Assembly: GCA_028282585.1 (NCBI GenBank)
Contig: JANQHR010000027.1
Location: 1-48,724, forward strand
DNA: 48,724 nucleotides
Direction: 5' to 3'
From: Bacteroidales bacterium
GTDB taxonomy: Bacteria > Bacteroidota > Bacteroidia > Bacteroidales > UBA12077
Positions within the stretch are counted from its first letter, which is position 1; every line of letters begins with the position of its first letter. The notes beneath the pieces are model-generated. The model searched no databases. It was given only the letters and a program-made list of their open reading frames with translations, and was not told the DNA's origin. Positions 8,427 through 27,601 of this stretch are shown piece by piece. Both the position numbers and the translations under genes were made by a program.

Positions 8427-8428
8427 CT

Positions 8429-9088: not shown

Positions 9089-9136
9089 TCCGGGCATTTG
9101 AATAAAAGTATGCACGGAAGGCATTTCCGTACCAGC
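9071..9136. repeat. Inverted pair of REP-like palindromes
   Basis: GCTAGCGCGGATTTGTAATCCGGGCAT (9071-9097) and its inverted relative ATGCACGGAAGGCATTTCCGTACCAGC (9110-9136). Each has an internal CGGA..TCCG hairpin. Confidence 0.55.
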
Positions 9137-9173
9137 GCAAAAAAAGAAATAGAAACTAAAAAAATAAAAGAAA

Positions 9174-9650
9174 ATGAAACTAAAAATTATACTAATAGCA
9201 TTTTTAGCCATAGTAAGTTTTAACAGCATGGCACAAACCGTCGAAATCATTTATGATTACGATGCTGCGGGTAACCGCATACAACGAGAGTATAAAGTTA
9301 TACCGGCAGCACCTGAAACTTTTAACGATACAGAAACCGCAAACAGCGAAGAAGCTTTGGAAGGCGAAGGGATTACAGAGCCCGAAGTTTACAACGATTT
9401 GGTAGCCGAAAAACAGTTTAACATTTATCCTAACCCAACACGAGGTAAATTAAAAATAGATATGTTAAATTATAGTTTCGGTACGGAAGGTATTATCCAG
9501 GTATTTGATCTGAATGGTCGCTTGGTGAAACAAGTTACAAAACTTGAAGTTAGCATGGAGCTGGATATTACCAACGAACCTGCCGGTACTTACATTATGG
9601 TTATTGTCGTCGGCAACGAAAAATCGGAATGGAAAATCGCTAAACAGTAA
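9174..9650 (+). CDS. Small T9SS type A sorting-domain protein with a single YD-like repeat
   Basis: Signal peptide (SMA-Q), YDYDAAGNRIQR, acidic linker, CTD IYPNPTRG..VFDLNGRLV..GTYIMVI..KIAKQ. Confidence 0.88.
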   Translation: MKLKIILIAFLAIVSFNSMAQTVEIIYDYDAAGNRIQREYKVIPAAPETFNDTETANSEEALEGEGITEPEVYNDLVAEKQFNIYPNPTRGKLKIDMLNYSFGTEGIIQVFDLNGRLVKQVTKLEVSMELDITNEPAGTYIMVIVVGNEKSEWKIAKQ

Positions 9651-9677
9651 GTTATAAAAACCTTTACACAAAAACTT

Positions 9678-9710
9678 AAGCCTCCCATATTTTAAAATTG
9701 GGAGGTTTTT
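9678..9710 (+). terminator. Intrinsic terminator closing the fibre/Rhs operon
   Basis: Stem AAGCCTCCCA / TGGGAGGTTT running into a T-run. Confidence 0.75.
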
Positions 9711-9813
9711 AATCTTCCATATCTTTTCTCATATTCAAGTCTACTTTGTTATTTTCTTTTTTGTTATCATAAGATTTATTAACTTTAATTTATAACCTTG
9801 TTATGAATAGAAA

Positions 9814-11889: not shown

Positions 11890-11948
11890 TACAATTTAAC
11901 GGTGAATAATTAATATTTGGTTTTACAATATTTTAATTTGCTTTTTAT

Positions 11949-11956
11949 TAATTTTG
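11949..11956 (+). promoter_or_regulatory. Bacteroidota -7 promoter element upstream of trkA
   Basis: TAATTTTG matches TAnnTTTG, 43 bp before the ATG. Confidence 0.55.
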
Positions 11957-11999
11957 TCACCCGGTTTACTTAAACCGAAGCAAAAAGATATAATATAGA

Positions 12000-13337
12000 A
12001 TGAAAATCATAATCGCTGGAGCCGGTGAGGTTGGAACACACTTAGCAAAGATGCTAAGCGCTGAGTTTCACGATATCATGGTGATTGATCCGGATGAAGA
12101 AAGCTTAAAAAGCATTGACTCCAATTTAGATTTATTAACGGTTAAAGGATCTGCCACATCTTTCGAGATGCTGAGAGAAGCAAAAGTAAAACGGGCAGAT
12201 CTGTTTATAGCAGTTACACATTCCGAAGAAACTAATATTACAGCTGCAATCATAGCAAAAAAACTTGGAGCCAAAAAGACTATAGCCCGTGTTGATAGCA
12301 ATGAATATATTGAACCGGAGAATATCTCACATTTCACTCATCTTGGAATTGATTATTTGATTTATCCGGAAAGAATTGCTGCCCGGGAGATTGTTAGTAT
12401 GCTGGGGCAAGGTGAGATCTTTGAATCTGTAGATTTTTCAGGAGGAAAATTATCATTGTATGTATTGAAACTTGGAGAAAAAGCATTGGTACTAAATAAA
12501 CCTCTTATTTCAATTGCCGAAGACAAAAAGATTGACTTTAGAGCCGTTGCAATTACCAGAAATGGAAAAACGATTATACCGGGAGGTGATGATCATTTCC
12601 AATTAAACGATTTGGTATATGTTGTAACTAACAGAGCCGGATTTAAAGATGTAATGAAATATTCGGGTAAAAAGAAGATTGATATAAAAAACATCATGAT
12701 TCTGGGTGGAAGCCGTATTGGAAAACGTGTTGCAAAATCTCTTGAAAGCAGATTTAATATAAAACTTATTGAAATTGATAAACAAAAATCGGCAGAATTA
12801 GCAGATTATTTAACAAACTCTCTTGTTATTGGTGGTGATGGAAGAAATATTGATCTGCTAAATGAAGAAGGCTTGTCAAACATGGACACGTTTATTGCTG
12901 TTACGGGTAATAGTGAAACCAATATATTATCGTGCCTTTTAGCAAAGAAAATGGGTGTTAAAAAAACCATTGCCGAAATTGAAAACATTGATTATATCGA
13001 CCTTGGCGAAAGTATGGGTATTGATACCATTATAAATAAAAAGTTAATTACCGCGAGTAGGTTATTCAGATTTACTATGAGTGCAGAGGTTGAAACCATG
13101 AAATGCTTAACGGGATCTGATGCTGATGTTCTTGAGTTTGTTGCCAAAGAAAACTCTAAAATTACCAGGGGTAGTTTACGAAGCATTGATTTCCCTAAAG
13201 ATGCAATTGTTGGAGGAATAATTCGTGGTCATCATTCATTTATTGCTACTGGTGAGACCGAAATTTTAGCTGATGACAGGGTTGTTGTATTTGCGCTTCC
13301 TTCTGCAGTTAAGAGACTTGACAACTTTTTTAATTAA
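12000..13337 (+). CDS. trkA: Trk potassium transporter NAD-binding subunit
   Basis: Two RCK domains (IIIAGAGEVG; IMILGGSRIG); adjacent to trkH. Confidence 0.96.
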   Translation: MKIIIAGAGEVGTHLAKMLSAEFHDIMVIDPDEESLKSIDSNLDLLTVKGSATSFEMLREAKVKRADLFIAVTHSEETNITAAIIAKKLGAKKTIARVDSNEYIEPENISHFTHLGIDYLIYPERIAAREIVSMLGQGEIFESVDFSGGKLSLYVLKLGEKALVLNKPLISIAEDKKIDFRAVAITRNGKTIIPGGDDHFQLNDLVYVVTNRAGFKDVMKYSGKKKIDIKNIMILGGSRIGKRVAKSLESRFNIKLIEIDKQKSAELADYLTNSLVIGGDGRNIDLLNEEGLSNMDTFIAVTGNSETNILSCLLAKKMGVKKTIAEIENIDYIDLGESMGIDTIINKKLITASRLFRFTMSAEVETMKCLTGSDADVLEFVAKENSKITRGSLRSIDFPKDAIVGGIIRGHHSFIATGETEILADDRVVVFALPSAVKRLDNFFN

Positions 13338-13339
13338 AA

Positions 13340-14791
13340 ATGATTAATAAAAAAATCATTATTCAGGTAATGGGCCTCCTTCTTTTAATAGAAGGATTTT
13401 TCCTGGGTCTATCTTCATTAGTTAGTCTTTATTACGGAGAATACGATTTTATAGCTTTAATCTTGACTTCAGCTATTTGTATTATTTGCGGAATAAGCTT
13501 TAAATTGTTAACCAATAATGCAGAAAAAAACATTGGCAAACGAGATGGTTATATCATTGTAAGTTTGGTATGGGTAATTTTCTCTTTATTTGGGGCTTTA
13601 CCATTTGTAATTTGCGGTGCTATCCCGTCCTATACAGATGCATTTTTTGAAACCATTTCCGGTTTTACTACAACAGGAGCTTCTATTTTAAATGATATAG
13701 AAGCAATGCCTAAAGGTTTACTTTTCTGGAGAAGCTTAACACAATGGCTGGGTGGAATGGGAATTATTGTTTTATCCATTGCCATATTACCCATGTTAGG
13801 AATTGGAGGAATGCAATTATTTGTTGCTGAAGTACCAGGACCAACTCCTGATAAAATTCATCCCAGGGTTAAAGAAACTGCCAAAAGGCTTTGGGGTATT
13901 TATATAATTTTCACTTTTGTGGAGGTTATATTACTAAAAATTGGTGGAATGAATTGGTTCGATGCTGTTAATCATTCGTTTACCACCATGGCAACTGGTG
14001 GATATTCTACCAAGCAGGCAAGTATTGCTGATCCAAGTTTTTCTCCGTTCATACATTATGTAATTATTGTATTTATGTTCCTTGCAGGTACAAACTTTAC
14101 TCTTTCTTACTTTGCATTACAGTTAAAACTTGGAAAAGTTTTTAAAAATGAGGAATTTAGATACTATCTTGGATTTGTGATTTTGTTTACGGTTGCAATA
14201 GCTTTTGCATTATGGCATTTTGAAGGCAATGATCCGGAAAAATCATTCCGTGATGCGCTCTTTCAGGTTGTATCCGTAATTACAACTACAGGTTATGTAA
14301 CCGTAGATTACCTCGAATGGATGCCTTTTGTGATCGTTATGATTTTTGCTTTGATGTTTTTTGGTGGCTCGGCAGGATCAACAGGTGGTAGTATTAAAAT
14401 TGTGCGAGTAACTTTATTATTAAAAAACAGCTATCAGGAGCTTAAAAGAATTATTCATCCCAATGCAATTATTCCGGTTCGAATTAATGATAAAAGTGTT
14501 CCGCCACAGATCATTTCAAACATTTTGGCTTTTGTGGTTTTTTATATGCTTATTTCCATTATTAGCACGATAATAATTTCTGCTTTAGGATACGATCTAG
14601 AAACGTCCTTAGGAGCTGTGGCTGCGACACTTGGAAACATCGGCCCAGGACTTGGATCAGTTGGTCCTGTTGAAAACTATTCACATATTCCGGTTTTTGG
14701 AAAGTGGTTTTTATCTTTTCTTATGCTAATTGGAAGGTTAGAGTTATTTACGGTAATCGTACTATTCTCTCCTTCTTTTTGGAAGAAATAA
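13340..14791 (+). CDS. trkH: Trk potassium uptake membrane protein
   Basis: FFETISGFTTTGAS, QWLGGMGII, GSTGGSIK, LMLIGRLE. Confidence 0.96.
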   Translation: MINKKIIIQVMGLLLLIEGFFLGLSSLVSLYYGEYDFIALILTSAICIICGISFKLLTNNAEKNIGKRDGYIIVSLVWVIFSLFGALPFVICGAIPSYTDAFFETISGFTTTGASILNDIEAMPKGLLFWRSLTQWLGGMGIIVLSIAILPMLGIGGMQLFVAEVPGPTPDKIHPRVKETAKRLWGIYIIFTFVEVILLKIGGMNWFDAVNHSFTTMATGGYSTKQASIADPSFSPFIHYVIIVFMFLAGTNFTLSYFALQLKLGKVFKNEEFRYYLGFVILFTVAIAFALWHFEGNDPEKSFRDALFQVVSVITTTGYVTVDYLEWMPFVIVMIFALMFFGGSAGSTGGSIKIVRVTLLLKNSYQELKRIIHPNAIIPVRINDKSVPPQIISNILAFVVFYMLISIISTIIISALGYDLETSLGAVAATLGNIGPGLGSVGPVENYSHIPVFGKWFLSFLMLIGRLELFTVIVLFSPSFWKK

Positions 14792-14792
14792 T

Positions 14793-15407
14793 TTAAAAGG
14801 TTAATTCACCAATTCCTTGTCTTATAATTTCAAATTCATCTCTTGTGCAATCGACTACAGTAGAAGCCTCATTATTACCATATCCGCCATCAATAACATA
14901 ATCAACCAGGTGTTCATAATTCTCATGTATTAGTTCCGGATCGGTCATATAATCAAGAATTTCATCTTCGTGATGAAGCGATGTTGTCATGAATGGATGA
15001 CCCAATTTGTTGACAAGTTCAATAGCAATGTTATTGTTTGGAATTCTTATTCCTACTGTTTTCTTTTTTGTTTTATAAAACCTTGGAACATTGTTGTTTG
15101 CATTTAAAATGAACGTAAATGGTCCCGGAAGGTTATGCTTTAAGATCTTAAATGTTGCATTATTTATATGTTGGGTAAATTGCGAGACCTGGCTAATATC
15201 ACTACAAACCAAAGAAAAATTCTCTTTCAGTGCGTTTTTCCCCTTAATTTTTACAATCTTATCAAATGCTTTAGGACTATTAATGTCCCAAGCCAATCCA
15301 TAAACTGTATCAGTTGGGTATATAACTAAACCATTATTGCGTAAAGCTTCAATAGCCATATCAATCTGTCGAGGGTTCGGATTATCCGGATGTACTTCTA
15401 ATAACAT
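14793..15407 (-). CDS. Sua5/YciO/YrdC family protein (threonylcarbamoyl-AMP synthase-like)
   Basis: YPTDTVYGL, LPGPFTFIL, TVGIRIP, ASTVVD. Confidence 0.92.
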   Translation of the reverse strand: MLLEVHPDNPNPRQIDMAIEALRNNGLVIYPTDTVYGLAWDINSPKAFDKIVKIKGKNALKENFSLVCSDISQVSQFTQHINNATFKILKHNLPGPFTFILNANNNVPRFYKTKKKTVGIRIPNNNIAIELVNKLGHPFMTTSLHHEDEILDYMTDPELIHENYEHLVDYVIDGGYGNNEASTVVDCTRDEFEIIRQGIGELTF

Positions 15408-15429
15408 ATTCGCTTTTCAAAATCAGATG

Positions 15430-15437
15430 CAAATGTA
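15430..15437 (-). promoter_or_regulatory. -7 promoter element for the Sua5/YciO gene
   Basis: Minus strand TACATTTG, with TTTG 18 bp upstream (15456-15459). Confidence 0.55.
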
Positions 15438-15494
15438 ATAAAACATTAGACAGTTCAAATAATACATAGAATATTTAACACTATAAATCAAAAA

Positions 15495-15642
15495 AAGAAG
15501 CTGTCCAAAAAGCCTCTTATTTCATGTCTACACTTCGACTCCCGATGGTTATCGGGACAGTGTGACAGTCAGATTATCAGAAAGTTGTCATATTGAGCTT
15601 GTCGAAATATGAACAACATTTCTACTTTTTGGACAGCTTCTT
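15495..15642. mobile_element. MITE/REPIN-like non-coding element with perfect 18-bp terminal inverted repeats
   Basis: AAGAAGCTGTCCAAAAAG (15495-15512) / CTTTTTGGACAGCTTCTT (15625-15642). Internal REP-like arms and palindrome TCCCGATGGTTATCGGGA (15540-15557). Confidence 0.65.
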
Positions 15643-15663
15643 ATATTTATATTATTCTAACTT

Positions 15664-16320
15664 TTAACCATTTACACTTTTGTAATCAGCTAAGAATTTT
15701 TCCAAGCCAATATCAGTTAATGGATGATTTAATAATCCTAAAATTGCATTTAAAGGACAAGTTGCTACATCTGCTCCAGCCTCCATGCATTGTATAATAT
15801 GCATTGTATGACGTATTGATGCTGCTAATACCTCTGTTTCAAATCCATAATAGCTATAGATATCAACGATCTGTGCAATTAATTCAACTCCATCGGTTGA
15901 AATATCGTCCAGTCTCCCTATAAATGGTGAAACAAACGTTGCTCCTGCCTTAGCAGCTAACAAGGCCTGACCAGGTGAAAACACCAGTGTACAATTTGTT
16001 TTAATTCCTTTTCCACTCAAGTACTTTATTGCTTTAACTCCATCTTTAATCATTGGTATTTTAACCACAATTTGTGGATGCAATGCAGCTAATGCTTCAC
16101 CTTCTTTTATCATTCCTTCATAGTCAGTGGCAATAACTTCGGCACTAACATCACCATCAACTATTTCACATATTTTTTTATAGTGATTTATAATATTTTC
16201 CTCTCCACTAATACCTTCTTTAGCCATTAATGAAGGATTTGTAGTAACTCCGTCTAAAACCCCCAAATCTTGTGCTTCCTTAATTTGGTCCAAATTTGCT
16301 GTATCGATAAAAAACTTCAT
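15664..16320 (-). CDS. fsa: Transaldolase / fructose-6-phosphate aldolase (TalC/Fsa family)
   Basis: [44 protein letters not shown]. Confidence 0.96.
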
Positions 16321-16419
16321 GATTTATAATTTAATGATTAATCAAATTTCGTTGCGAAAATAAAGTAAATTTTCGATTATAAAAATTCAAAATATTAACC
16401 CTGAATTGAACGCGGGAAT

Positions 16420-16878
16420 CTATGCATTAAATAAGTTTACAAGGTATAGATAGGTTTTACCTCTTATACCCGGATTTATACTTTCCCGATTACCCGCTAT
16501 ATTTAAAGTTTTAATTTTATTTAAAGATATCCACTGAATCACTTTTTTATCAGTGAATTCTTCGCTAATATCTACTATTAAATAAGGTTTCGAAAACTGC
16601 GTACATAAATTCATGGTATCTAATACTCCTCCTTGAGCCTCAGTAGAATCTCTAATTATAAGAGTACCATCCGATTCCAAAACATTCTTTTTTGTTCTAT
16701 CCGTATACTCTTCACTTTCAATTTCTGATACGGGATATCGATAAGGTATAGTTCCTCTTTCGCTTTTCCTGCCTCTTGGGCAAAATCCTCCACATTCAAA
16801 TCCATGATCTAAAGCAAAATCTAAAGCACCTTGATCAACACCCGTTTGACCACCTGAAATAATTTTGATTTTATCCAT
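16420..16878 (-). CDS. Putative molybdenum-carrier / cpYpsA-type SLOG family protein
   Basis: KIISGGQTGVDQGALD, RTKKNVLESDGTL, LNIAGNRES. Confidence 0.85.
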   Translation of the reverse strand: MDKIKIISGGQTGVDQGALDFALDHGFECGGFCPRGRKSERGTIPYRYPVSEIESEEYTDRTKKNVLESDGTLIIRDSTEAQGGVLDTMNLCTQFSKPYLIVDISEEFTDKKVIQWISLNKIKTLNIAGNRESINPGIRGKTYLYLVNLFNA

Positions 16879-17305
16879 TATTGCTTTCTTTTAGTACTTT
16901 GTAAATGCCATATTTTCTGCAATATCTGTAAAACCAACTATATTCAATATCAAATCCCAGATTCTTTTTAACTTTATTTTGCAACTGCTCAATTGTTTTA
17001 ACACTTTTTGCTGATGCCATTCTTTTTATCCTTGTTTTGTATGGATGTAGCTGTGATTTACGTCTTTCAGAGTATTTATATTTAAGTAATCCTTCAATTC
17101 CTTTTTTTAAATAGATTTTAGTCCAGTCAGCAACAGTATCTTCATGGATACCTAATAATTGAGTTATATTAATATTTTTTTGTCCTTCGTTCTTTAATAA
17201 TATACAGTAAACCCTTTTTAGAATATTTTTTTTATTCTGATTTTCCTTTACTAATTGCTTTAATTTAGCTTCTTCCTCTATTGTAAGAATTACTTTATAA
17301 CCCAT
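16871..17305 (-). CDS. Helix-turn-helix protein resembling the IS630 transposase N-terminal DNA-binding region, without DDE domain
   Basis: RVYCILLKNEG..ITQLLGIHEDTVADWTKIYLKKGIEGLL HTH. ATG 17305 preferred to the track start. Overlaps the downstream gene by 8 bp. Confidence 0.65.
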   Translation of the reverse strand: MGYKVILTIEEEAKLKQLVKENQNKKNILKRVYCILLKNEGQKNINITQLLGIHEDTVADWTKIYLKKGIEGLLKYKYSERRKSQLHPYKTRIKRMASAKSVKTIEQLQNKVKKNLGFDIEYSWFYRYCRKYGIYKVLKESNNG

Positions 17306-17500
17306 TGATAATAAATTTGCTACAAAGTACAAAAACGGAACTAAAAAAGCAAGTATACATGAAAGTTTCTAAACACTTTTCATTATTAATTATAATTGAA
17401 TCATCATAACATTATGATCTTAATAATCAATTTTTCTTTAAGATTTAATAGGATTCTTTAAAACCGAATTCAAGTTATAAAAAAAGAAGGAAAATAAAAA

Positions 17501-19424: not shown

Positions 19425-19550
19425 TTCTTAATTTTATTTTTTGCATTTTATTTTTAATTTAGCGTCTACTTAATATTACCTTTAAGACAAAAGATTAGAA
19501 AAATATTTCTAATTGAGATTTATTAACCTAAAATCCCCCTTTTATCAATT

Positions 19551-19880
19551 ATGAGAAAATTCATTGTTATCAGACAAGAAGGAAAGTATAAAAAAATATT
19601 TATTGATGATATTCTTTTTTGTAAAGCTGTAGGTGCATATACAAATTTCCATTTAACAGATAACAAAACAATATTAACATCAATGTTATTAAAAGATGTA
19701 GAAAATAAATTAAACTCTTATAACTTTTCAAGAATCAACAGGTCCTATTTAGTAAACTTAGACCACTGTTTTGAACTTTTAACAGGTAATAAGCCTGAAA
19801 TTGTGCTTTCAAATAACATAAAACTTGAAATTAGTCAATCTAGGTTAAAATACTTGCGCGAGCAATTTTGTGTTTATTGA
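19551..19880 (+). CDS. Stand-alone LytTR DNA-binding domain protein (no receiver domain)
   Basis: DDILFCKAVGAYT, LKDVENKL, FSRINRSYLVNL, LEISQSR; only 109 aa. Confidence 0.88.
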   Translation: MRKFIVIRQEGKYKKIFIDDILFCKAVGAYTNFHLTDNKTILTSMLLKDVENKLNSYNFSRINRSYLVNLDHCFELLTGNKPEIVLSNNIKLEISQSRLKYLREQFCVY

Positions 19881-20040
19881 AAAAAACATAATGCTTATTA
19901 TAAAAAGCCTGTAATTTATAAACTCATTTAGGTATTTTAAAATAATGAATAAAATTTTTGCCAATTTTGAATTGATAATATTATTTATTAATCAAAAATT
20001 TTTAATTATGAAAAAATTAGACCTAAGTCAAATGGAAAAA
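19784..20040 (+). repeat. 257-bp direct repeat copy 1 (LytTR 3' end + intergenic region + precursor leader)
   Basis: Ungapped match to 21667-21923; 20 mismatches counted by hand (about 92%). Confidence 0.95.
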
Positions 20041-20184
20041 CAACAGGCAGGAGGAAAAAATAGAGACTGCATGGTTATGGGAATGGTAACAGTTTTATCT
20101 ATTGTTCCTTCGATCTTTAGTGCTGGAGCAGCTACTCTTGCTGCAGTTACAGCAGCTGTAAATATGGGATGTTTGGATAGTTAA
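20008..20184 (+). CDS. Double-glycine-leader peptide precursor 1 (bacteriocin-like, 58 aa)
   Basis: MKKLDLSQMEKQQAG|GKNRDCMVMGMVTVLSIVPSIFSAGAATLAAVTAAVNMGCLDS; cleavage could be one residue later, after GG. True start ATG 20008. Confidence 0.88.
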   Translation: MKKLDLSQMEKQQAGGKNRDCMVMGMVTVLSIVPSIFSAGAATLAAVTAAVNMGCLDS

Positions 20185-20208
20185 AAATGATTAATTACAT
20201 TCTTGAAA

Positions 20209-20367
20209 ATGAAAAAACTCAAATTATATCAAATGGAAATAGTGAATGGAGGATTATCTCCAAGGGATTGTTATTTATCTCCAATACTTGCAGCCGTATT
20301 TGTAAACACTTTATATTTTGAAATATTTGTGAATAAATCTATAGAGTGTTGGAAAAGTGACGAATAA
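20209..20367 (+). CDS. Double-glycine-leader peptide precursor 2 (52 aa, absent from ORF track)
   Basis: Hand translation MKKLKLYQMEIVNGG|LSPRDCYLSPILAAVFVNTLYFEIFVNKSIECWKSDE. Confidence 0.85.
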   Translation: MKKLKLYQMEIVNGGLSPRDCYLSPILAAVFVNTLYFEIFVNKSIECWKSDE

Positions 20368-20518
20368 CATCAAAAGAAAGTTGTTTAAAAAGTGGGTTAT
20401 GATATAACTATTTAACTTTATTACGAAAATTAGTATTTGTGCTTGTAAAAAGAAAACAGTCAATTTAATTGAGCATTCAATCAAATAACATATTAATAAA
20501 TCACGTAATAATCTTAAA

Positions 20519-20719
20519 ATGCAAGATAAACTGAACAAAAAAGAAAGATTATTTGGTATATTTCTTTATATATCTGGGTTAATTTCTATTTTATTATTAT
20601 TAGCTAATGGTCTAACTTACATAACCATTAATAGTACTTATATACAAGCAATAATAATTTTTATTGCATTTCTTTGTCCTGTATTTGGTTTTCGATTAAT
20701 AAAAAAAAGCAAAAAATAA
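20519..20719 (+). CDS. Small two-TM membrane protein, candidate immunity
   Basis: 66 aa, two hydrophobic helices, basic C-terminus KKSKK; follows precursors 1-2. Confidence 0.6.
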   Translation: MQDKLNKKERLFGIFLYISGLISILLLLANGLTYITINSTYIQAIIIFIAFLCPVFGFRLIKKSKK

Positions 20720-20798
20720 GCTTTGTATTTTTTATAAAATACTAAAATATAAAGTTTTTACCAATTTTGGATTAACAATTTTTTCATAATCAATGATT

Positions 20799-20987
20799 AT
20801 GAAAAAATTAGAATTAAATCAAATGGAACAAATTGAAGGTGGATGCAGTGAGAGATAAGAAAGAGCAATTGCAGTAGCTGGTCTTGTAGCAGGTGTAGGT
20901 TCTATGTTTGGACCTATAGGACTGATGATTGCAGGACCAACTGCCTTGGGAATGGTAATAGGGTCTGCCATTTGTGCTTTTAAATAA
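20799..20987 (+). pseudogene. Double-glycine-leader peptide precursor 3 with one in-frame stop
   Basis: MKKLELNQMEQIEGG|CSER*ERAIAVAGLVAGVGSMFGPIGLMIAGPTALGMVIGSAICAFK; TAA at 20856-20858. Confidence 0.88.
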
Positions 20988-21007
20988 TAATCATTAAATA
21001 TTAGCTT

Positions 21008-21424
21008 ATGAATGATATTATTGTTTTAACAAAAAGAAGCGTTTTCCCATTAACAAGATTTTATTTTTCTATAGAGCATGAAAGCTATTTTATTCGATCG
21101 GGAGAACTAAAAAAAATAAAGCTTGATGGAGAAGGAGAGTATGAAATAACAGTACATTCTTTTTGGATAAGCAAAAAGACTAAGTTGTTCTTAAAGAATA
21201 TGTCAATACTTAACATAAAACATATTATCCCTGATTTGTATTACTTGGTTGGAATACCAACCGTAGTTATTATGTCTATTTTAGCATTTCTGGGCTTAGT
21301 TAATGTATTACTATTATCTGGAATTGTTTTACTCTATTTATTACCTTTATTATATTTTACCTTTTTAAAATCCAATTATTATTTTAAAATCAATATAGAA
21401 GAAACAATTTGTTTTATAGAGTGA
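21008..21424 (+). CDS. Hypothetical protein with soluble N-domain and two C-terminal TMs, candidate immunity to precursor 3
   Basis: Starts 20 bp after precursor 3; hydrophobic hairpin near the C-terminus. Confidence 0.6.
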   Translation: MNDIIVLTKRSVFPLTRFYFSIEHESYFIRSGELKKIKLDGEGEYEITVHSFWISKKTKLFLKNMSILNIKHIIPDLYYLVGIPTVVIMSILAFLGLVNVLLLSGIVLLYLLPLLYFTFLKSNYYFKINIEETICFIE

Positions 21425-21490
21425 TTATCTAAATAACTACTCTATTTTCTTAATACCTTCAACAATTATAATCTCTATTTTGAGAAAAAT

Positions 21491-21763
21491 ATGATATTAC
21501 AATCAATAAAAGAAAATATCTATGAGAAAATAAATTCATAAATTCAAGCAAAAATTCAAAATATTAATACAAAGCTATTTTTAAGTCTTTTATTGTTACT
21601 TTATGTACTTGTAGGAGTAATACTTAACTGGTATATTATTACCGATGATCATTACTACGGCTCTTTAGGTAATAAGACAGAAATTGTGCTTTCAAATAAC
21701 CTAAAACTTGAGATTAGTCAATCTAGGTTAAAACACTTGCATGAGCAGTTTTGTGTTTATTGA
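21491..21763 (+). pseudogene. Chimeric remnant: 5' part of the 24244 membrane gene fused in frame to the LytTR 3' end
   Basis: 21552-21673 matches 24260-24381 (9 mismatches in 122 bp). 21667-21763 matches the LytTR end. Reads ..IQNINTKLFLSLL..DDHYYGSLGN/KTEIVLSNNLKLEISQSRLKHLHEQFCVY*. In-frame TAA at 21539. Confidence 0.88.
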
Positions 21764-21923
21764 AAAAACCTTAATGCTTATTATAAAAAAACGGGATTTT
21801 ATAAACTCGTTTAGGTATTTTAAAATAATGAATAAAATTTTTGCCAATTTTGAATTGATATTCTCATTTATTAATCAAAATTTTTTAATTATGAAAAAAT
21901 TAGACCTAAGTCAAATGGAAAAA
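21667..21923 (+). repeat. 257-bp direct repeat copy 2
   Basis: Matches 19784-20040. Confidence 0.95.
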
Positions 21924-22067
21924 GTTAATGGTGGTTGGAGTTGGGAAGATTGCCTTTCTGGAGCAGGAAGGGCATTAGTTCATGGAGGCTGGGTTGCAGC
22001 TGCTGCCGGAGGTTGGATAGGTGTAGGTGCATTAGCAGCATTTGGTTGTGTTGTAGCTAATACGTAA
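21891..22067 (+). CDS. Double-glycine-leader peptide precursor 4 (class II/Blp-like bacteriocin, 58 aa)
   Basis: MKKLDLSQMEKVNGG|WSWEDCLSGAGRALVHGGWVAAAAGGWIGVGALAAFGCVVANT; Gly/Ala-rich core. True start ATG 21891. Confidence 0.9.
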   Translation: MKKLDLSQMEKVNGGWSWEDCLSGAGRALVHGGWVAAAAGGWIGVGALAAFGCVVANT

Positions 22068-22080
22068 TTGGCTTTTTCAG

Positions 22081-22117
22081 AAATGAGTATTTATAAATGT
22101 TGTAAATACTCATTTTC
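22081..22117 (+). terminator. Stem-loop after precursor 4 (terminator/attenuator)
   Basis: AAATGAGTATTTA (22081-22093) / TAAATACTCATTT (22103-22115). Confidence 0.6.
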
Positions 22118-22135
22118 TATTAACAATTCTGTTTA

Positions 22136-22885
22136 ATGAAAAATAACTTTAGAATTTCCTTATTATTAATTCAAACTAACCTACTTAGTTTGAAAAGGTA
22201 TAGTACAGGCTCTTTACTTGAGGTTGCATTTAAACGTTATGGATTAAAATATCCAGCAGAATGGATAGGTATTCTATTTGTATTTACTTTTTTTTCCATG
22301 GTTTTCATTGGTGTTTCATTTGAAAAAACGATCACGATAAATAATAAAGAATGGTTAAATATTATAGATATTAATGCATTGTTTTTTTCTATGATTATAA
22401 TATTAGAGTTTCTATTACAGAAACCAGTATTTAATATTTCAAGGATTCAGTTAAAGTTATTTCCAATATCATATAAAAACAGGCTACATATAAAATATTT
22501 GTATGAAATCTTTGATAAAAAAATAGTTGGACTAGTTTTATTTTTTATCATTTTATCAGTATTTATAGTATATAAGAAACAACAATTTGATTTATATTTA
22601 ACCATTTTAACATATACCAGTGTAACAACAACATATTTATTAACATGCTCTTTTATCATTACATTTAGAGCTATCCTTAAGAGAAAAATTAAAAAAAACC
22701 ATAGCTTATTTATACCGATAATCTCAACTCTGATGATTATATGCATTCTTTTTTATATCAAGTATATCAGGATAAATGTAATATCAATAACTCATATTTT
22801 CATATCACTTGCTTTTACTATATCCTTGTGTATAATTTTGTATTTTATCAACTTATTTATTGAAAAAAATTGTAATCATAGGTAA
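22136..22885 (+). CDS. Multi-TM membrane protein, probable ABC permease (immunity-type)
   Basis: About six hydrophobic segments; LKLFPISYKNR..EIFD loop; in operon with an ABC ATPase. Confidence 0.6.
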   Translation: MKNNFRISLLLIQTNLLSLKRYSTGSLLEVAFKRYGLKYPAEWIGILFVFTFFSMVFIGVSFEKTITINNKEWLNIIDINALFFSMIIILEFLLQKPVFNISRIQLKLFPISYKNRLHIKYLYEIFDKKIVGLVLFFIILSVFIVYKKQQFDLYLTILTYTSVTTTYLLTCSFIITFRAILKRKIKKNHSLFIPIISTLMIICILFYIKYIRINVISITHIFISLAFTISLCIILYFINLFIEKNCNHR

Positions 22886-23507
22886 AAAGTCAGTCAATAT
22901 AATTTACTATTCTTGTTTAATGATACCAGTTTACCTAAAATATTATTTTCGTAAGGCTTATTTCTTTCGTTTTACACCTTTTGTAATTCCTGCCATTTAT
23001 TATCATAATATTAAAATAGCATTATTACTTTATATGCTCTTGTTTATTTTATACGAGAATTGTTTTTGCAAACCTTTTAATGAAAAATATTTATGGGATA
23101 ATCGGATGAATATTATTACGGAAGTTAATACAGGAAAATTGTTTACTACAGTTAACTTAATAAATTTATTGTCAATTGCTTTTTGGTTTTACCTATCCTT
23201 AGTTATTAATTATATTTTGAACCACAATATTGCTGATATAGGATATTTAATTATCCAGTTTTTATCTTTATTATTATTCTCAACAATAATAGGGAATTTC
23301 TTGTATTTTATTTTTTCAAAGATTCCTCCATTCTTTGCAAAGAGGATTGTGCGAATATTAATATTTTCCATACCATTAAATATTTCCGTTGCAATCAACT
23401 TTTTACAGTTCTATTTTCAAATTATTTTTCTAACAGTACTTATTTTTGTTTGGTACAAACAAATTAAGTATTTCAATTCTCATTCACATAACACAATCAA
23501 AATATGA
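22860..23507 (+). CDS. Multi-TM membrane protein, probable second ABC permease half
   Basis: Several hydrophobic segments; stop overlaps the ATPase start (ATGA). Start uncertain (TTG 22860 or ATG 22920). Confidence 0.55.
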   Translation: MKKIVIIGKKSVNIIYYSCLMIPVYLKYYFRKAYFFRFTPFVIPAIYYHNIKIALLLYMLLFILYENCFCKPFNEKYLWDNRMNIITEVNTGKLFTTVNLINLLSIAFWFYLSLVINYILNHNIADIGYLIIQFLSLLLFSTIIGNFLYFIFSKIPPFFAKRIVRILIFSIPLNISVAINFLQFYFQIIFLTVLIFVWYKQIKYFNSHSHNTIKI

Positions 23508-24238
23508 TTAGCCTATTAAATATATCCAAGCACTATTCAAAAAACCTTGTTCTTAATGATATTTCATTTGACATTGAAACTGGGAAAGCTACCTGCTTAC
23601 TTGGGAAAAATGGTGCAGGAAAAACTACAACTGTAAACATTATAAGTGGCCTTTTAGAACAAAATGAAGGACATGTTTATATAGACAACCAAGAAATATC
23701 TCAAACTACATATGATTATCGTAGAAAGTTCGGATATGTTTTTGAAGAACATATGTTAATTGACAAGTTAACAGCTAAGGAATACATAACACTGATAGCA
23801 GAAATGTACGATATTCCCAAAAACGAATATGATATTCGAATAAAATCGTTATTAAATTTTTTTGAACTACCAGATGATAATAGTAAATATATCGAAAGTT
23901 ACTCTTTAGGGATGAAAGTTAAAACTTCTTTAGCCGCAGCTATGGTAAATAAGCCAAACTATCTTATTCTTGATGAACCCTTTAACGGACTAGACATAAT
24001 AAGTGTAAACAATTTGCTTAGTTTATTGAAAAATTTCATTAAACAAAATGGAACAATTTTTATTACATCTCATAATCTTGATCTGGTTTCTGATTTATGC
24101 GATACTTTTTACGTATTAGACAAAGGCAAGATAAAGACAAAACTAAATAAACAAGATTATAGCTCTAAGGAGGAACTTAAAAATAAAGTAAAAAACATTT
24201 TAATTAAAGAAAATTCCGTGGAAAATATAAATTGGTAG
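23504..24238 (+). CDS. ABC transporter ATP-binding protein (ABC-2/LanF-like)
   Basis: Walker A GKNGAGKT, signature YSLGM, Walker B YLILDEP, ITSH. Confidence 0.92.
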   Translation: MISLLNISKHYSKNLVLNDISFDIETGKATCLLGKNGAGKTTTVNIISGLLEQNEGHVYIDNQEISQTTYDYRRKFGYVFEEHMLIDKLTAKEYITLIAEMYDIPKNEYDIRIKSLLNFFELPDDNSKYIESYSLGMKVKTSLAAAMVNKPNYLILDEPFNGLDIISVNNLLSLLKNFIKQNGTIFITSHNLDLVSDLCDTFYVLDKGKIKTKLNKQDYSSKEELKNKVKNILIKENSVENINW

Positions 24239-24243
24239 ACTTC

Positions 24244-24891
24244 ATGATTTTAAAAAATGAAATTCAAAACATTAATACAAAGCTATTTTTAAGTCTTTTA
24301 TTGTTACTTTATGTGCTTGTAGGAATAATACTTAATTGGTATATTATTACCGATGATCATTATTACAAATCTTTAGGAAATCAACTAGATGTTGAGCGAA
24401 TACGTCAACTTCTAACCTTTCGGAATAAATGGGATTGGATAGGATTTTTAATTATTCCTCTTTTAATTTTAGTTAAAATATCATTAGTTGCTGTTTGCCT
24501 TGAAGTTGGTAATTTTATTATTGATTTAAAATTGAAATTTAAACAATTATTTAAAATCGCACTATTGGGAGAAGCAATTTTTCTGATTGCAGCACTTACT
24601 AAAATTATATACTTTTTATTATTTCCGAAAAATGTTACGCTTGAATTTATTCAAACCTTTTATCCTTTGTCTTTAATAAACATGGTTGTAATTGAAAAAA
24701 TTCCAGCCTATTTAGTTTATCCTCTACAATTAATTAATGTTTTTGAACTGCTTTATTGGATTATTCTGGCGTATTTAATCAAAATTTATACCAACAGTTC
24801 ATTTGATAAATCGTTTGGTTTTGTAGCTAAAACATATGGGATTGGGCTTTTTACATGGGTTGTGCTGGTTGTTTTTCTTTCAATAAATTAA
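24244..24891 (+). CDS. Multi-TM (about five) membrane protein associated with the peptide export module
   Basis: Hydrophobic segments, FYPLSLIN..YPLQLINVFELLYW; directly upstream of redoxin and C39 transporter. ATG 24244 preferred. Confidence 0.7.
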   Translation: MILKNEIQNINTKLFLSLLLLLYVLVGIILNWYIITDDHYYKSLGNQLDVERIRQLLTFRNKWDWIGFLIIPLLILVKISLVAVCLEVGNFIIDLKLKFKQLFKIALLGEAIFLIAALTKIIYFLLFPKNVTLEFIQTFYPLSLINMVVIEKIPAYLVYPLQLINVFELLYWIILAYLIKIYTNSSFDKSFGFVAKTYGIGLFTWVVLVVFLSIN

Positions 24892-24904
24892 AAAAGTACC
24901 TTGA

Positions 24905-25426
24905 ATGAAAGAAATTATTAAAATAGTTTTTCCTATAATTTTATTTTTAGGGGTTGGGTTTATGTTGTTTAAAACATTTAAAAAAATTGAACAGAAAAAT
25001 ACAATTGCTTTACAAATCAAAAAAATCCCCGATTTTGAGTTTTTAGAAATCCAATCAAATGAAAAATTTTCGAGTAAGTCATTAAAAAAAGATATTCCTG
25101 TACTTTTCGTGTATTTCAATACCGAGTGTGAACACTGTAGATATGAAATAAAACAAATAAGCCACAATATAAACAAATTTGAAAATTGTCAGATAATAAT
25201 GATTTCCATTGAAGAACCGGAAATATTAAAAACATTTACCAAAAAACACAACTTATTAAATAAAAAAAATATAACAATCCTTTATGATAAGGATTTAATG
25301 TTCGAAGAAATATTCGGGAATTGTCCTTTCCCAACCAGTTTTATCTATAATAAAAAAAGAGAGCTGGTAAAAACCTTCAAAGGAGAGGTAAAAATAGAAG
25401 CCTTGCTAAAATACCTGAACGAATAA
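24905..25426 (+). CDS. Membrane-anchored thioredoxin-fold (TlpA/ResA-like) thiol-disulfide oxidoreductase
   Basis: N-terminal TM, FNTECEHC (CxxC), cis-Pro motif FPTSFIY; TAATG-coupled to the transporter. Confidence 0.88.
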   Translation: MKEIIKIVFPIILFLGVGFMLFKTFKKIEQKNTIALQIKKIPDFEFLEIQSNEKFSSKSLKKDIPVLFVYFNTECEHCRYEIKQISHNINKFENCQIIMISIEEPEILKTFTKKHNLLNKKNITILYDKDLMFEEIFGNCPFPTSFIYNKKRELVKTFKGEVKIEALLKYLNE

Positions 25427-27594
25427 TGGACATTAAAAGAATAAAAAAAATATTTGAATTACAACAGGATCAATCAGACTGCGGTGTTTCTTGCTTAAGA
25501 TCATTAACAAAGTTTTATGGGGGAGAAATTTCTTTAGAAAAGTTAAGAGAGTTAAGCGGGACCTCAATTCAGGGAACTACTTTGTTAGGTTTGTATCAAG
25601 GAGCAAACAAAGTTGGCTTTAAAGCCGATGGTTGCGAAGCAAACATTCAATCTTTAATTGACCATGGAAAACCACTTATATTGCATGTAACAATTGATAA
25701 TAGGTTACAACATTTTATCATCTGTTTTGGTTATGAAAATGACCAATTTATTATAGGAGATCCTGCCAAAGGAATCATTTACTATTCAAAAGAAGAACTA
25801 GATAAAATTTGGGTTTCCAAAACTTGTTTAACGCTGGAACCGGATAGGTCATTTCAAAAAACAGAAAATATCAGGGAATCTAAGAAAAAGTGGTTTAAAA
25901 ATTTGATCAGGGAAGACAAGGAAATATTAGCCATTAGTATAGTAGTTGGTTTAGTGGTTTCCATTTTAGGAATGATAATGTCAATATTTTCACAAAAACT
26001 AATTGATGAAATACTCCCTTCCAAAGATCTGCAAAAACTAATATTAAGCATCGTTCTAGTGGCTTTTTTACTTATTGCAAGAACAGGGTTCCTAGCGATC
26101 CGCCAGTTTTTACTCATAACCCAAAGTCGGCAATTTAATAAACGCATCATTGATACTTTCTATAATTCATTACTATACCTTCCCAAATCTTTTTTTGATA
26201 CACGAAGAACTGGAGAACTTATTGCAAGATTGAACGATACTGCCCGTGTGCAAAAAGTGATTACGCAAGTTATCGGAAATTATATTATTGATGGTCTTAT
26301 AGTTATTACCTCCACTACCATTTTATTCTATTATTCGTGGCAAACGGGATTGATTGCTATTTTGAGTATGCCATTTTATTTTTTACTTATCTACCGGTTT
26401 AACAAAAAGATTATTGCATCTCAAAAAGATGTCATGGCCGCTTATGCACATAGCGAAAGTAATTACGTTAGCACTATGTCGGGAATATCAGAAATTAAAA
26501 CCTTTAATAAACAACCATTTTTTGCTGATTTAAATAAAATCATTTATGGCAATCTTCAAGATAATGTGTTCAAATTAGGCAGGATAAATGTAAAATTGAG
26601 CTTTATAGCTGGTTTTACAGGTGTTTTGTTTTTAAGTCTGGTTTTAATATATAACTCATATCTTGTATACTCAGACAAGATTCTTCTGGGTAGTCTGATT
26701 GCTATTTTAGGAATATCGTCAACTCTTTTACCTTCTGTAAGCAACATCGCTCTCATTGCAATACCATTGAACGAAGCAAAAGTGGCTTTTAATCGAATGT
26801 ATGAGTTTACCAGCATTGCACCGGAGGATGAGACTATAAAAGAATCCAAAGAAATTAAGATAGAAAAATTAGAAGTTAAAAACCTGGCATTCAGGTTCCC
26901 TGGAAGAAAAAAGATTTTGGAGAATATTAACATCACATTACAAAAAGGCGAACTTATTTCTCTGATTGGTGAAAGTGGAAGTGGTAAGAGTACATTGGGT
27001 TACCTAATACAAAAATTTTATACTCCCGAATCAGGCACCATTATAATAAATGATCATTTAAATTTAAATGAATTAAACACGAATAAATGGAGAAATAAAA
27101 TAGGCGTTGTACCGCAGGATATACACATTTTTAATGGCACGGTTATAGAGAATATATGTCTGGGAAATGTACAACACGAAGGCGAAAATGTTCTAAAATT
27201 CTTAAAAGAAAATGGTTTTGCCCAATATATCGAAAGACTACCACAAAGTTTTGCAACAATTCTGGGCGAGGAAGGTATCAATTTATCTGGTGGGCAAAAA
27301 CAAATAATTGCACTTGCTAGGGCTTTATATAGAGATCCTCAACTTCTTATCCTTGATGAGGCAACTGCCGCTATGGACAGAGAAACGGAGAAATTTACAA
27401 TCGCATTATTACATAAACTAAAAAAAGAAAAAGCGATCTTCTATATTTCACACCGCCTGCATGTTTTAAAAAAAATTAGTGATAAAATCTATATACTTCA
27501 AGATGGTAAAATACAAAACGTCGGTACACATTGGGAATTACTATCACACGAAAATGTTTACAGTGATTACTGGAAAGGGTTAACAGAAGTTTAG
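25426..27594 (+). CDS. Peptidase C39-containing ABC transporter (bacteriocin processing/export)
   Basis: QQDQSDCG (Cys), QHF (His), GDPA (Asp); TM domain; GESGSGKS, LSGGQ, LLILDE. Confidence 0.96.
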   Translation: MDIKRIKKIFELQQDQSDCGVSCLRSLTKFYGGEISLEKLRELSGTSIQGTTLLGLYQGANKVGFKADGCEANIQSLIDHGKPLILHVTIDNRLQHFIICFGYENDQFIIGDPAKGIIYYSKEELDKIWVSKTCLTLEPDRSFQKTENIRESKKKWFKNLIREDKEILAISIVVGLVVSILGMIMSIFSQKLIDEILPSKDLQKLILSIVLVAFLLIARTGFLAIRQFLLITQSRQFNKRIIDTFYNSLLYLPKSFFDTRRTGELIARLNDTARVQKVITQVIGNYIIDGLIVITSTTILFYYSWQTGLIAILSMPFYFLLIYRFNKKIIASQKDVMAAYAHSESNYVSTMSGISEIKTFNKQPFFADLNKIIYGNLQDNVFKLGRINVKLSFIAGFTGVLFLSLVLIYNSYLVYSDKILLGSLIAILGISSTLLPSVSNIALIAIPLNEAKVAFNRMYEFTSIAPEDETIKESKEIKIEKLEVKNLAFRFPGRKKILENINITLQKGELISLIGESGSGKSTLGYLIQKFYTPESGTIIINDHLNLNELNTNKWRNKIGVVPQDIHIFNGTVIENICLGNVQHEGENVLKFLKENGFAQYIERLPQSFATILGEEGINLSGGQKQIIALARALYRDPQLLILDEATAAMDRETEKFTIALLHKLKKEKAIFYISHRLHVLKKISDKIYILQDGKIQNVGTHWELLSHENVYSDYWKGLTEV

Positions 27595-27601
27595 CATGAA
27601 A

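Follow-up and report, generated by a model that had tools for sequence, protein, structure and literature searches.

The contig JANQHR010000027.1 (assembly GCA_028282585.1), a stretch of 48,724 nucleotides (nt) to which we refer throughout as the window, comes from an uncultured, coral-associated member of the Bacteroidota (order Bacteroidales) and carries an island of about 8 kb in which all genes lie on the + strand. We consider it likely that this island is a multi-toxin locus for class II bacteriocins of the bacteroidetocin type, in which peptides with double-glycine (GG) leaders are exported by a peptidase-containing ABC transporter (PCAT), closed into rings by a redoxin with the help of a protein with five transmembrane (TM) segments (the 5-TM protein), and accompanied by self-protection genes. 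Bacteroidetocins are, to our knowledge, the only characterised class II peptide toxins of the Bacteroidota, and those tested came from gut and oral strains. An initial annotation had described a same-strand island of 8 kb between two convergent family 2 glycosyltransferase (GT2) genes, with a gene order running from a LytTR regulator to a C39 transporter; every one of these genes was found on the + strand in the proposed order and place, the inserted segment could be delimited exactly at 19425-27601, and the reading of the locus as bacteroidetocin-type gained support (Table 1). Below, G numbers denote genomes and L numbers the loci compared, the window's own genome being G000.

As far as the available part of the published account extends (PMC6671954), production of bacteroidetocins A and B needs four genes, encoding a five-TM protein, the peptide, a thiol oxidoreductase and a C39 ABC transporter. 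Activity is attenuated when the gene for the TM protein, the oxidoreductase or the peptide is deleted; immunity comes from neither accessory protein, and producers die by their own toxin. The same excerpt gives bacteroidetocins leaders of 15 amino acids (aa; 15-16 in the definition) and cationic 42-aa cores with four cysteines, and counts 19 such peptides in four classes of the phylum, the weaker of which share only the leader, at least two cysteines and the accessory genes. Tested bacteroidetocins bind BamA (loop 3), and their cationic charge is thought to matter, according to those portions of two reports that were available (PMC6671954, PMC8546649).

Homology to the bacteroidetocin export module

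All four bacteroidetocin gene kinds are present in the island: a 5-TM protein, peptides with leaders of 15-16 aa, a thiol oxidoreductase and a C39 ABC transporter. Homology was judged through L066, a locus of the same order, and not through the Bacteroides genes themselves. L066 has the published arrangement, with a TM protein of 237 aa, a peptide (15-aa leader; Lys-rich, cationic 45-aa core with four Cys), a 165-aa redoxin and a C39 transporter. The 5-TM protein of the window matches the TM protein of L066 in a profile search (E 2.1e-21), in BLASTP (E 4e-9; 23% identity over 173 aa) and in hhalign (98.4%), and the two redoxins are 29% identical (E 2e-11). On these two matches to a locus of published layout the export module is supported as bacteroidetocin-type, and the trio of membrane protein, thiol oxidoreductase and C39 transporter, to which the initial annotation had likened these genes, is upheld. 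The PCAT scores 414 bits against TIGR01193, under the cut-off of 524, and its catalytic Cys19 and His96 are present. The redoxin has one N-terminal TM anchor, and its CxxC motif is kept in all 18 full-length homologues from the loci compared, taking the form CxHC in ten.

The 5-TM protein shows five hydrophobic peaks, and its AF2 model is confident (pLDDT 95.6). Neither Pfam nor NCBIfam gave a match to it; among the best 120 of 183 sequence matches all relatives are annotated as hypothetical and none has a Pfam domain. Fold searches with the model yielded no clear relative (best Foldseek E 1.9), the best VIA Z of 6.7 being within the noise for helical bundles. A role like that of DsbB or VKOR was considered and rejected, since an alignment of 49 homologues has no conserved pair of cysteines. 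A profile built from 49 members of the family matched in 17 of 400 other genomes of the class, and the family occurs in nine of the 36 other genomes of the genus. In the family f160 (L058-L065, L068, L069), all ten genomes sampled have a 5-TM paralogue of 210-216 aa, which has no peptide, redoxin or PCAT gene nearby and adjoins genes for a conserved membrane protein of ~450 aa and a TPR protein. Since these paralogues lack export-module neighbours, the accessory protein appears to derive from, or to have given rise to, a housekeeping family. A housekeeping paralogue matches Yip1 (PF04893) at 20.2 bits, below the cut-off, and 17% of one neighbouring Atlas cluster carries PF04893, the window's own protein being absent from that Atlas; we treat kinship of the 5-TM family with Yip1 as a lead only.

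Precursors, exchangeable cargo and known double-glycine systems

The four leaders (16 aa in P1; 15 aa in P2, P3 and P4) fit MKKLxLxQME and end in Gly-Gly. The strict pattern occurs four times in a six-frame translation of the 4.89-Mb genome and all four occurrences lie in the island. The shared leader MKKLxLxQMExxxG[G] of the initial annotation is borne out; the same leader type is found on peptides beside the TM-redoxin-PCAT trio in other Bacteroidota. The cores, of 42, 37, 47 (the broken P3) and 43 aa, had been called unrelated. This holds for their sequences and not for their layout, for they share a frame of two Cys, one at core position 1-6 and another 4-6 residues from the C-terminus; because these cysteines stand near both ends, a disulfide between them would close the peptide into a large ring. 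The cores have net charges of 0, -2 and -1, and the class IIa motif YGNGV is absent from all four cores on direct reading.

P1, P3 and P4 have uncharacterised relatives elsewhere, and none was found for P2. P1 belongs to an unnamed, recurrent family marked by the motifs NRDC (N-terminal) and GC(F/L) (C-terminal); a search of 1.84e9 representatives gave 13 proteins at E<=0.001, namely P1 itself, four long proteins matching in part and eight peptides of 55-62 aa. P4 has a weak match to PF10439 (7e-4, below the cut-off) and two unnamed relatives, P0121 (74% identical) and a weaker one. Beyond its nonsense codon the P3 frame stays open, and G125 has an intact relative of this tail, a precursor of 64 aa (L077 1426-1620), with 61% identity over 41 aa. 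For the P2 core, a word search over 5.8e9 proteins returned P2 alone, and the best match in 300 other genomes of the order had an E of 0.006 and a stop inside; a P2-like local match in L072 was rejected as a relative, being an antisense open reading frame (ORF) within a 756-aa gene. In two-peptide (class IIb) systems, the products of two neighbouring precursor genes, with one immunity gene behind them, act together; here the P1 and P2 genes lie 24 nt apart, share one promoter box, P2 being without a box of its own, and are followed by the small membrane protein gene TM66. The C-terminal CW(K/N)S ending of P2 recurs in the second peptide after a P1-type gene in L091 and L056, which gives a weak lead towards a two-peptide pair; unlike such pairs, P1-type genes stand alone in L092, L093 and L095.

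The initial annotation had proposed a polymorphic array and a comparison of the locus across strains. Congeners were compared, and the array stands: the LytTR gene, leader and export module recur in them, each time with other cargo. At the DNA level two parts of the island are conserved in the genus, with 65-73% identity, and the cargo between them is not: one part is the end with the LytTR gene and a leader (six genomes), the other the PCAT gene (seven genomes); in G002 this match extends upstream into the 5-TM and redoxin genes. A short acidic peptide with two Cys follows this LytTR gene and leader in G008, G002, G017 and G018 and is itself followed, in the first three, whose retrieved loci extend that far, by a secreted CarbopepD_reg_2 protein of 419-431 aa, two copies of the 5-TM gene, the redoxin and the PCAT. 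This sister locus type (L033 in G008, L034 in G002, L035 in G017, L036 in G015, L031 in G018) often stands beside rpsO and pnp.

Further afield, the cassette of peptide, membrane protein(s), ABC ATPase, 5-TM protein, redoxin and PCAT is complete in two metagenome-assembled genomes (MAGs), one labelled Bacteroidetes (L014) and one Cytophagales (L016). It recurs with no peptide detected in L015 (a Chitinophaga MAG) and L017, over two contigs in G022 (L037), and partly in L043 and L045, whose retrieved sequence stops at the ATPase. Wherever a peptide was seen, in six of these cases, it is hydrophobic and Gly/Ala-rich with two Cys near its ends. The number of precursors varies from two to five elsewhere. 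L053 (G404; 215-1337) has five GG precursors in tandem, with 3-5 Cys each and two of them near-duplicates, ahead of the 5-TM, redoxin and PCAT genes, and is the largest array among the loci compared; G148 and G232 have two precursors each before the trio, and in the metagenome loci L092-L096 a P1-type peptide is followed by a TM ORF of 62-119 aa and then the trio. A profile of 18 such peptides matched in nine of 300 other genomes sampled from the order.

Set against the described bacteroidetocin loci of Bacteroides, Phocaeicola and Prevotella, as far as the available excerpts of the literature describe them, the island is alike in its GG leaders of 15-16 aa, its Cys-containing cores of ~40 aa and its position on acquired DNA. 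Bacteroidetocins are mature peptides of some 42-48 aa; the island's cores have the two cysteines of the looser definition and not the four-Cys pattern of Bd-A to Bd-E, and they are neutral or acidic, hydrophobic and Gly/Ala-rich. Four precursors lie upstream of the export genes, whereas in bacteroidetocin loci a single one lies between the TM and oxidoreductase genes; the island has an ABC-2-like transporter and small TM genes, whereas the loci described in those excerpts are without an immunity gene; and it differs from the described gut systems in a stand-alone LytTR regulator with a thrice-repeated box.

In the streptococcal blp and Lactiplantibacillus pln regions, several GG peptides with near-identical leaders and unrelated cores share one PCAT, and each is matched by genes for small membrane proteins of immunity; such regions often contain pseudogenes and orphan immunity genes, and LytTR-type regulators, there full response regulators with a kinase and a pheromone, act on repeated promoter elements. 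We know of no 5-TM protein or cluster redoxin in blp or pln loci. The island resembles these regions in its shared leaders, single PCAT, LytTR gene with repeated boxes and pseudogene, but its host is Gram-negative. Pediocin-type operons encode PedC, a membrane-anchored protein of thioredoxin fold beside the PCAT which ensures correct disulfides; the island shares the anchored redoxin beside the PCAT and differs in gene set, type of immunity, host and the lack of YGNGV. Class II microcins of Proteobacteria are likewise GG peptides of Gram-negative bacteria that are cut and exported by a PCAT and have small membrane immunity proteins, and several are Gly/Ala-rich with a disulfide, as proposed for the cores here. 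Their export needs a membrane-fusion protein and TolC, neither of which is encoded in the island, and their loci are not known to have a redoxin or a 5-TM protein, unlike the island; the pipeline of a study on class II microcins missed bacteroidetocins because their leaders differ (PMC12219008).

The description of the peptides as unmodified fits domain scans of the island, in which no lanthipeptide or glycocin modifying enzyme (LanB, LanC, LanM or a peptide glycosyltransferase) was found. An alternative is that the cores are precursors of modified peptides, lanthipeptide- or glycocin-like, with enzymes encoded elsewhere, such as the flanking GT2 genes or a LanB/LanC cluster. Glycocin clusters do bring together a GT2 enzyme and a PCAT with GG leaders and thioredoxin-like proteins, and the island lies between two GT2 genes; these, however, are neighbours in all 11 congener loci without the island and resemble undecaprenyl-phosphate and exopolysaccharide glycosyltransferases, and the glycocin idea fails since they are core neighbours there. 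The closest relative of the cassette from P4 to the redoxin (G022 contig C137, L013/L037) directly follows LanC, LanB-N, LanB-C and S41 peptidase genes, and the window's genome has a LanB/LanC cluster on contig C149, but the lanthipeptide idea fails because that cluster has its own PCAT and a Cys/Ser/Thr-rich precursor with a 28-aa leader, compared with only 15-16 aa in the island. Exactly two Cys per core and a dedicated CxxC redoxin also speak against modification, which we regard as the least probable of the readings considered.

The C149 cluster (~7508-17370) is of class I lanthipeptide type, with a precursor of 64 aa, two LanC-like genes, a LanB gene, a gene like the C-terminal part of LanB, the PCAT and an HlyD-like gene, its gene names resting on sequence likeness by eye and on Pfam matches of the G022 homologues. 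A second multi-precursor GG locus of the same genome, on contig C125 (~43259-50347), has five small ORFs with a longer, different GG leader and no Cys, together with small TM ORFs, an HlyD-like protein of 385 aa and a PCAT.

Insertion, cassette fusion and probable regulation

The island occupies a site that is closed in most of the related genomes inspected. A Pfam scan identified the GT2 genes that flank it on both sides and converge on it. The right-hand gene was found in 19 of 37 genomes of the genus at E<=1e-40, the window's own counted, with orthologues of 79-91% identity in 16 other genomes and more distant homologues of 46-47% identity in two further ones. Where the junction was inspected, in 11 congener loci, the left-hand GT2 gene is the convergent neighbour every time, and the gap between the two is 8 to ~220 nt in ten; in the eleventh, G016 (L084 394-1500), a gap of 1.1 kb holds an unrelated ORF of 275 aa on the opposite strand; insertions may have entered this site repeatedly within the genus. 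G025 provides an empty site, with 3 nt between the GT2 stop codons and flanking proteins 91-96% identical to those of the window, which has 8,177 bases at the equivalent point. The nearly adjacent GT2 genes of congeners and the empty site of G025 show the island to be an insertion, and we read it as a horizontally acquired one. Its GC content is 0.25-0.28 compared with 0.31-0.34 in the flanks; no integrase, transposase or target duplication was seen for it. About 2 kb to its left, window 16420-17332 holds a cpYpsA (SLOG) gene and an overlapping ORF of 153 aa with winged-helix/HTH_23 matches as in transposase N-termini, in which no catalytic transposase domain was seen.

Within the island the chimeric scar that had been proposed is real. 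One direct repeat, D1 (19784-20040 and 21667-21923; 257 nt, 92% identity), spans the 3' end of the LytTR gene, the intergenic region with its promoter and the first 11 leader codons; another, D2 (21552-21689 and 24260-24397; 138 nt, 88% identity), covers the start of the 5-TM gene. A three-way alignment passes from a diverged 3' remnant of an ATPase gene to the 5-TM piece and then, at a short microhomology, to the LytTR piece, while the similarity of the P1 and P4 units stops within the leader, just ahead of the core. A 263-nt contig from a separate assembly of the probable source run crosses the scar junction with 0 differences, and another contig of that assembly, covering 20011-21592, also has the stop in P3; since the assembly uses the same data set, it argues only against an assembly artefact and is not independent data. 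In the congener G022 a LytTR gene lies directly 3' of the PCAT gene on the same strand, which is the tandem state from which one deletion would yield the scar. The sequence shows two cassettes fused by a deletion from about codon 55 of a 5-TM gene to about codon 80 of a LytTR gene. The nonsense codon of P3 was acquired later, and the adjacent TM138 gene stayed intact. Because the long repeats are still 88-92% identical, the rearrangement is recent.

These traces raise the question of whether the whole island is a decaying remnant of broken cassettes that produces nothing. The nonsense codon in P3, the 270-nt scar with two gene fragments and the lack of any RNA evidence would suit such a view. 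Against it, only one of the 12 protein-coding genes is broken, perm1 to PCAT form a tightly packed run of six genes that begins 68 nt after P4, the catalytic Cys and His of the PCAT and the CxxC of the redoxin are kept, and the similarity of the repeats speaks for a recent event. We therefore think it very unlikely that the island is a remnant, and return to it as a bacteriocin locus whose gene set, homologies, insertion, scar and pseudogene can be read in the DNA itself.

The regulator is a LytTR-only protein with homologues of 47-60% identity beside the sister loci of the genus. A 21-nt box, TTTTTRCCAATTTTGRATTRA, lies 32-41 nt 5' of the start codons of P1, P3 and P4; it has three copies in the genome, all in the island, and aligns with a conserved box in four sister loci carrying a LytTR gene (seven of seven upstream regions). 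It ends in TTTG, which is typical of the -7 promoter element of Bacteroidota. From perm1 to PCAT, neighbouring genes either overlap or are separated by no more than 13 nt, and none has its own box; with three boxes, none of them at P2 or within perm1-PCAT, and such close packing, three transcription units are likely. From the co-occurrence of gene and box we infer that the LytTR protein binds near the latter; a direct repeat spaced 17-18 bp, read by eye in an AT-rich alignment 5' of the box in P1, P4 and the sister loci, may provide candidate LytTR boxes. A scan for sigma-70 promoters, which is not suited to this phylum, gave fewer sites than shuffled sequence.

A regulator of this kind invites another interpretation, in which the peptides are secreted signals that feed back on the LytTR protein and coordinate group behaviour. 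Double-glycine pheromones act in this way in streptococci and lactobacilli, and peptide quorum sensing in Gram-positive bacteria is built from a GG peptide, a PCAT and a LytTR-type regulator. In the sister loci, moreover, this LytTR gene and leader come with two-Cys peptides that are short, acidic and hydrophilic and do not resemble membrane-active ones, and P2 is unlike the Gly/Ala-rich cores. However, the island genes do not make up a quorum-sensing set of blp, com or agr type (kinase plus receiver-LytTR regulator): there is no histidine kinase in the island and the LytTR protein has no receiver domain. The hydrophobic cores precede an ABC-2-like transporter or small TM ORFs, as in toxin-immunity modules, and a nonsense precursor beside an intact TM gene fits an orphan immunity gene. 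The homologous systems tested so far, in the published account as available, are toxins (PMC6671954). Signalling consequently appears to us improbable as the function of the island, and a toxin locus the better reading.

Table 1. Features of the peptide island, in window coordinates.
Feature	Position	Strand	Description
Whole inserted island	19425..27601		8.18 kb, between the stop codons of two convergent GT2 genes
LytTR-only protein, 109 aa	19551..19880	+	Candidate regulator; PF04397, E 2e-20, residues 12-105
Promoter box, copy 1 (TTTTTRCCAATTTTGRATTRA)	19955..19975	+	Upstream of P1
P1 precursor	20008..20184	+	16-aa GG leader; 42-aa hydrophobic core, Cys5 and Cys39
P2 precursor	20209..20367	+	15-aa GG leader; 37-aa core, Cys6 and Cys32
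TM66, 66 aa, two-TM	20519..20719	+	Candidate immunity protein for P1/P2; 2-3 overlapping hydrophobic peaks read as 2 TM
Promoter box, copy 2	20755..20775	+	Upstream of P3
P3 pseudogene	20799..20987	+	Intact 15-aa leader; TAA at 20856-20858, core codon 5
TM138, 138-aa TM protein	21008..21424	+	Candidate immunity protein, an 'orphan' beside broken P3; starts 20 nt after P3
Recombination scar	21490..21763	+	ATPase 3'-end remnant, ~55 codons of 5-TM gene, last ~30 codons of LytTR gene
Promoter box, copy 3	21838..21858	+	Upstream of P4 and the export operon
P4 precursor	21891..22067	+	15-aa GG leader; 43-aa Gly/Ala/Trp-rich core, Cys6 and Cys38
perm1 and perm2, 249 and 215 aa	22136-22885, 22860-23507	+	Putative ABC-2-like permeases; ~6 and 5 hydrophobic peaks
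ABC ATPase	23504..24238	+	Of putative self-protection transporter; PF00005, 5.7e-32
5-TM accessory protein	24232..24891	+	219 aa from TTG; 215 aa from ATG at 24244
Redoxin, membrane-anchored, thioredoxin fold	24905..25426	+	CEHC; AhpC-TSA 6.5e-14, Redoxin 7.2e-8, ResA-like 4.5e-13
PCAT, 722 aa	25426..27594	+	Peptidase_C39 6.2e-31, ABC_membrane 2.3e-37, ABC_tran 6.8e-32

Proposed self-protection and mode of action, and meaning

The candidate self-protection genes are a putative ABC-2-like transporter and two small TM proteins. The genes perm1 and perm2, for which no Pfam match was found, overlap each other and the ATPase gene, and membrane protein genes likewise precede the ATPase in L014 (DUF5687), L016, L037, L043 and L045. 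The ATPase is nearest in NCBIfam to DrrA (8.7e-52) and to a lantibiotic-protection ATPase (2.9e-45), both below the cut-off, and shares 34-42% identity with the ATPases at the corresponding place in L014-L016. In the window, in G022 (L037), in L014 and in L016, the ATPase gene and the membrane protein genes ahead of it are flanked by a gene for a hydrophobic two-Cys peptide on one side and the TM gene on the other. TM66 has a positional counterpart in the TM ORFs of 62-119 aa that follow P1-type genes in L092-L096, to which a BLAST comparison found no sequence similarity. In G125, downstream of the intact P3-type gene, two collinear pieces resembling TM138 flank a transposase-like insertion. 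Their pairwise E values are 1e-4 and 8e-6, and in a BLAST against the whole database neither match is significant. The pairing of P3 and TM138 in G125 is probable, not certain; should it hold, the window and G125 would have broken opposite halves of one toxin-immunity module.

From these homologies and positions we infer how the locus would work, in regulation, cleavage, disulfide formation, toxicity, immunity and the route across the outer membrane. The LytTR protein would act on the three boxes and so on three units, P1-P2-TM66, the broken P3 with TM138, and P4 with the downstream genes as far as the PCAT. The C39 domain would recognise the shared leader and cut after Gly-Gly during export through the inner membrane, and the membrane-anchored CxxC redoxin would join the two core cysteines, the 5-TM protein being, to judge by its Bacteroides homologue, an obligatory helper of the disulfide step or of export. 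The hydrophobic, Gly/Ala-rich cores would most likely act on membranes of related Bacteroidota. Neutral or acidic cores with two Cys mean that BamA cannot be carried over to the island as the target. The producer would be protected by the ABC-2-like transporter together with the small TM proteins encoded after P2 and P3.

Several observations weigh against this interpretation. The cores lack cationic charge and have two Cys against the four of tested bacteroidetocins. Among the loci compared, the permeases, TM66 and TM138 have neither a family assignment nor BLASTP relatives, so that it is their position that suggests a protective role, and some P1-type loci (L056, L092-L096) are without an ABC-2-like transporter. 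The regulator has neither a receiver domain nor, within the island, a histidine kinase or sensor partner. By eye, the charge on the two sides of the redoxin anchor gives no clear orientation, and the active site is here assumed to be periplasmic. No HlyD-type, outer-membrane or membrane-fusion gene that could serve exit from the periplasm was found in the island, and the HlyD-type genes of the genome adjoin its two other PCATs. No RNA run with the locus was found, and the DNA occurs only in the probable source run.

A second locus for interbacterial antagonism lies elsewhere in the window (1767-9088), where a protein of 2219 aa ends in an Ntox23 toxin domain and has, besides, regions of the BACON, SpvB, FG-GAP and RHS-repeat kinds; it is followed by an ORF of 224 aa without a family match, possibly an immunity gene.

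Loci in which several GG precursors feed one exporter are ordinary, and the export trio has been described before. What appears new, on the sequence evidence, is the combination of two-Cys hydrophobic cores, precursors upstream of the export genes, candidate immunity genes, a LytTR gene with a repeated box, and a fusion scar. The variant was not found in literature on bacteroidetocins, class II bacteriocins of Bacteroidota and LytTR; Figure 8c or the supplements of one report (PMC6671954) may show such loci, and a core may be identical to one of the 19 published bacteroidetocins. Three wider proposals follow, and that all of them should hold together we think possible but doubtful. Gly/Ala-rich peptides with a single end-to-end disulfide may form a separate, undescribed subclass of Gram-negative bacteriocins; if so, action on membranes instead of BamA would account for an ABC-type self-protection of their own, which described bacteroidetocins lack. 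The unit of LytTR 3' end, promoter box and leader may be a portable handle for swapping toxin and immunity modules before a fixed export machine, and would then be a Gram-negative counterpart of the streptococcal blp region, driven by a LytTR protein without a sensor. The 5-TM protein, with a confidently modelled fold and no solved relative, may be a hitherto undescribed partner on which peptidase-containing ABC exporters depend.

The island places the same export and oxidation trio, with different cargo, in a marine, host-associated bacterium, with relatives in at least four other lineages of Bacteroidota. Apparent self-protection genes and a simple regulator accompany the cargo, and the shuffling of its cassettes is visible. 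It offers three intact peptide scaffolds (P1, P2 and P4) and a clean genetic setting for the function of the 5-TM protein, and it would provide a case in which the peptide weapons of a Gram-negative bacterium diversify by recombination at the boundary between leader and core.

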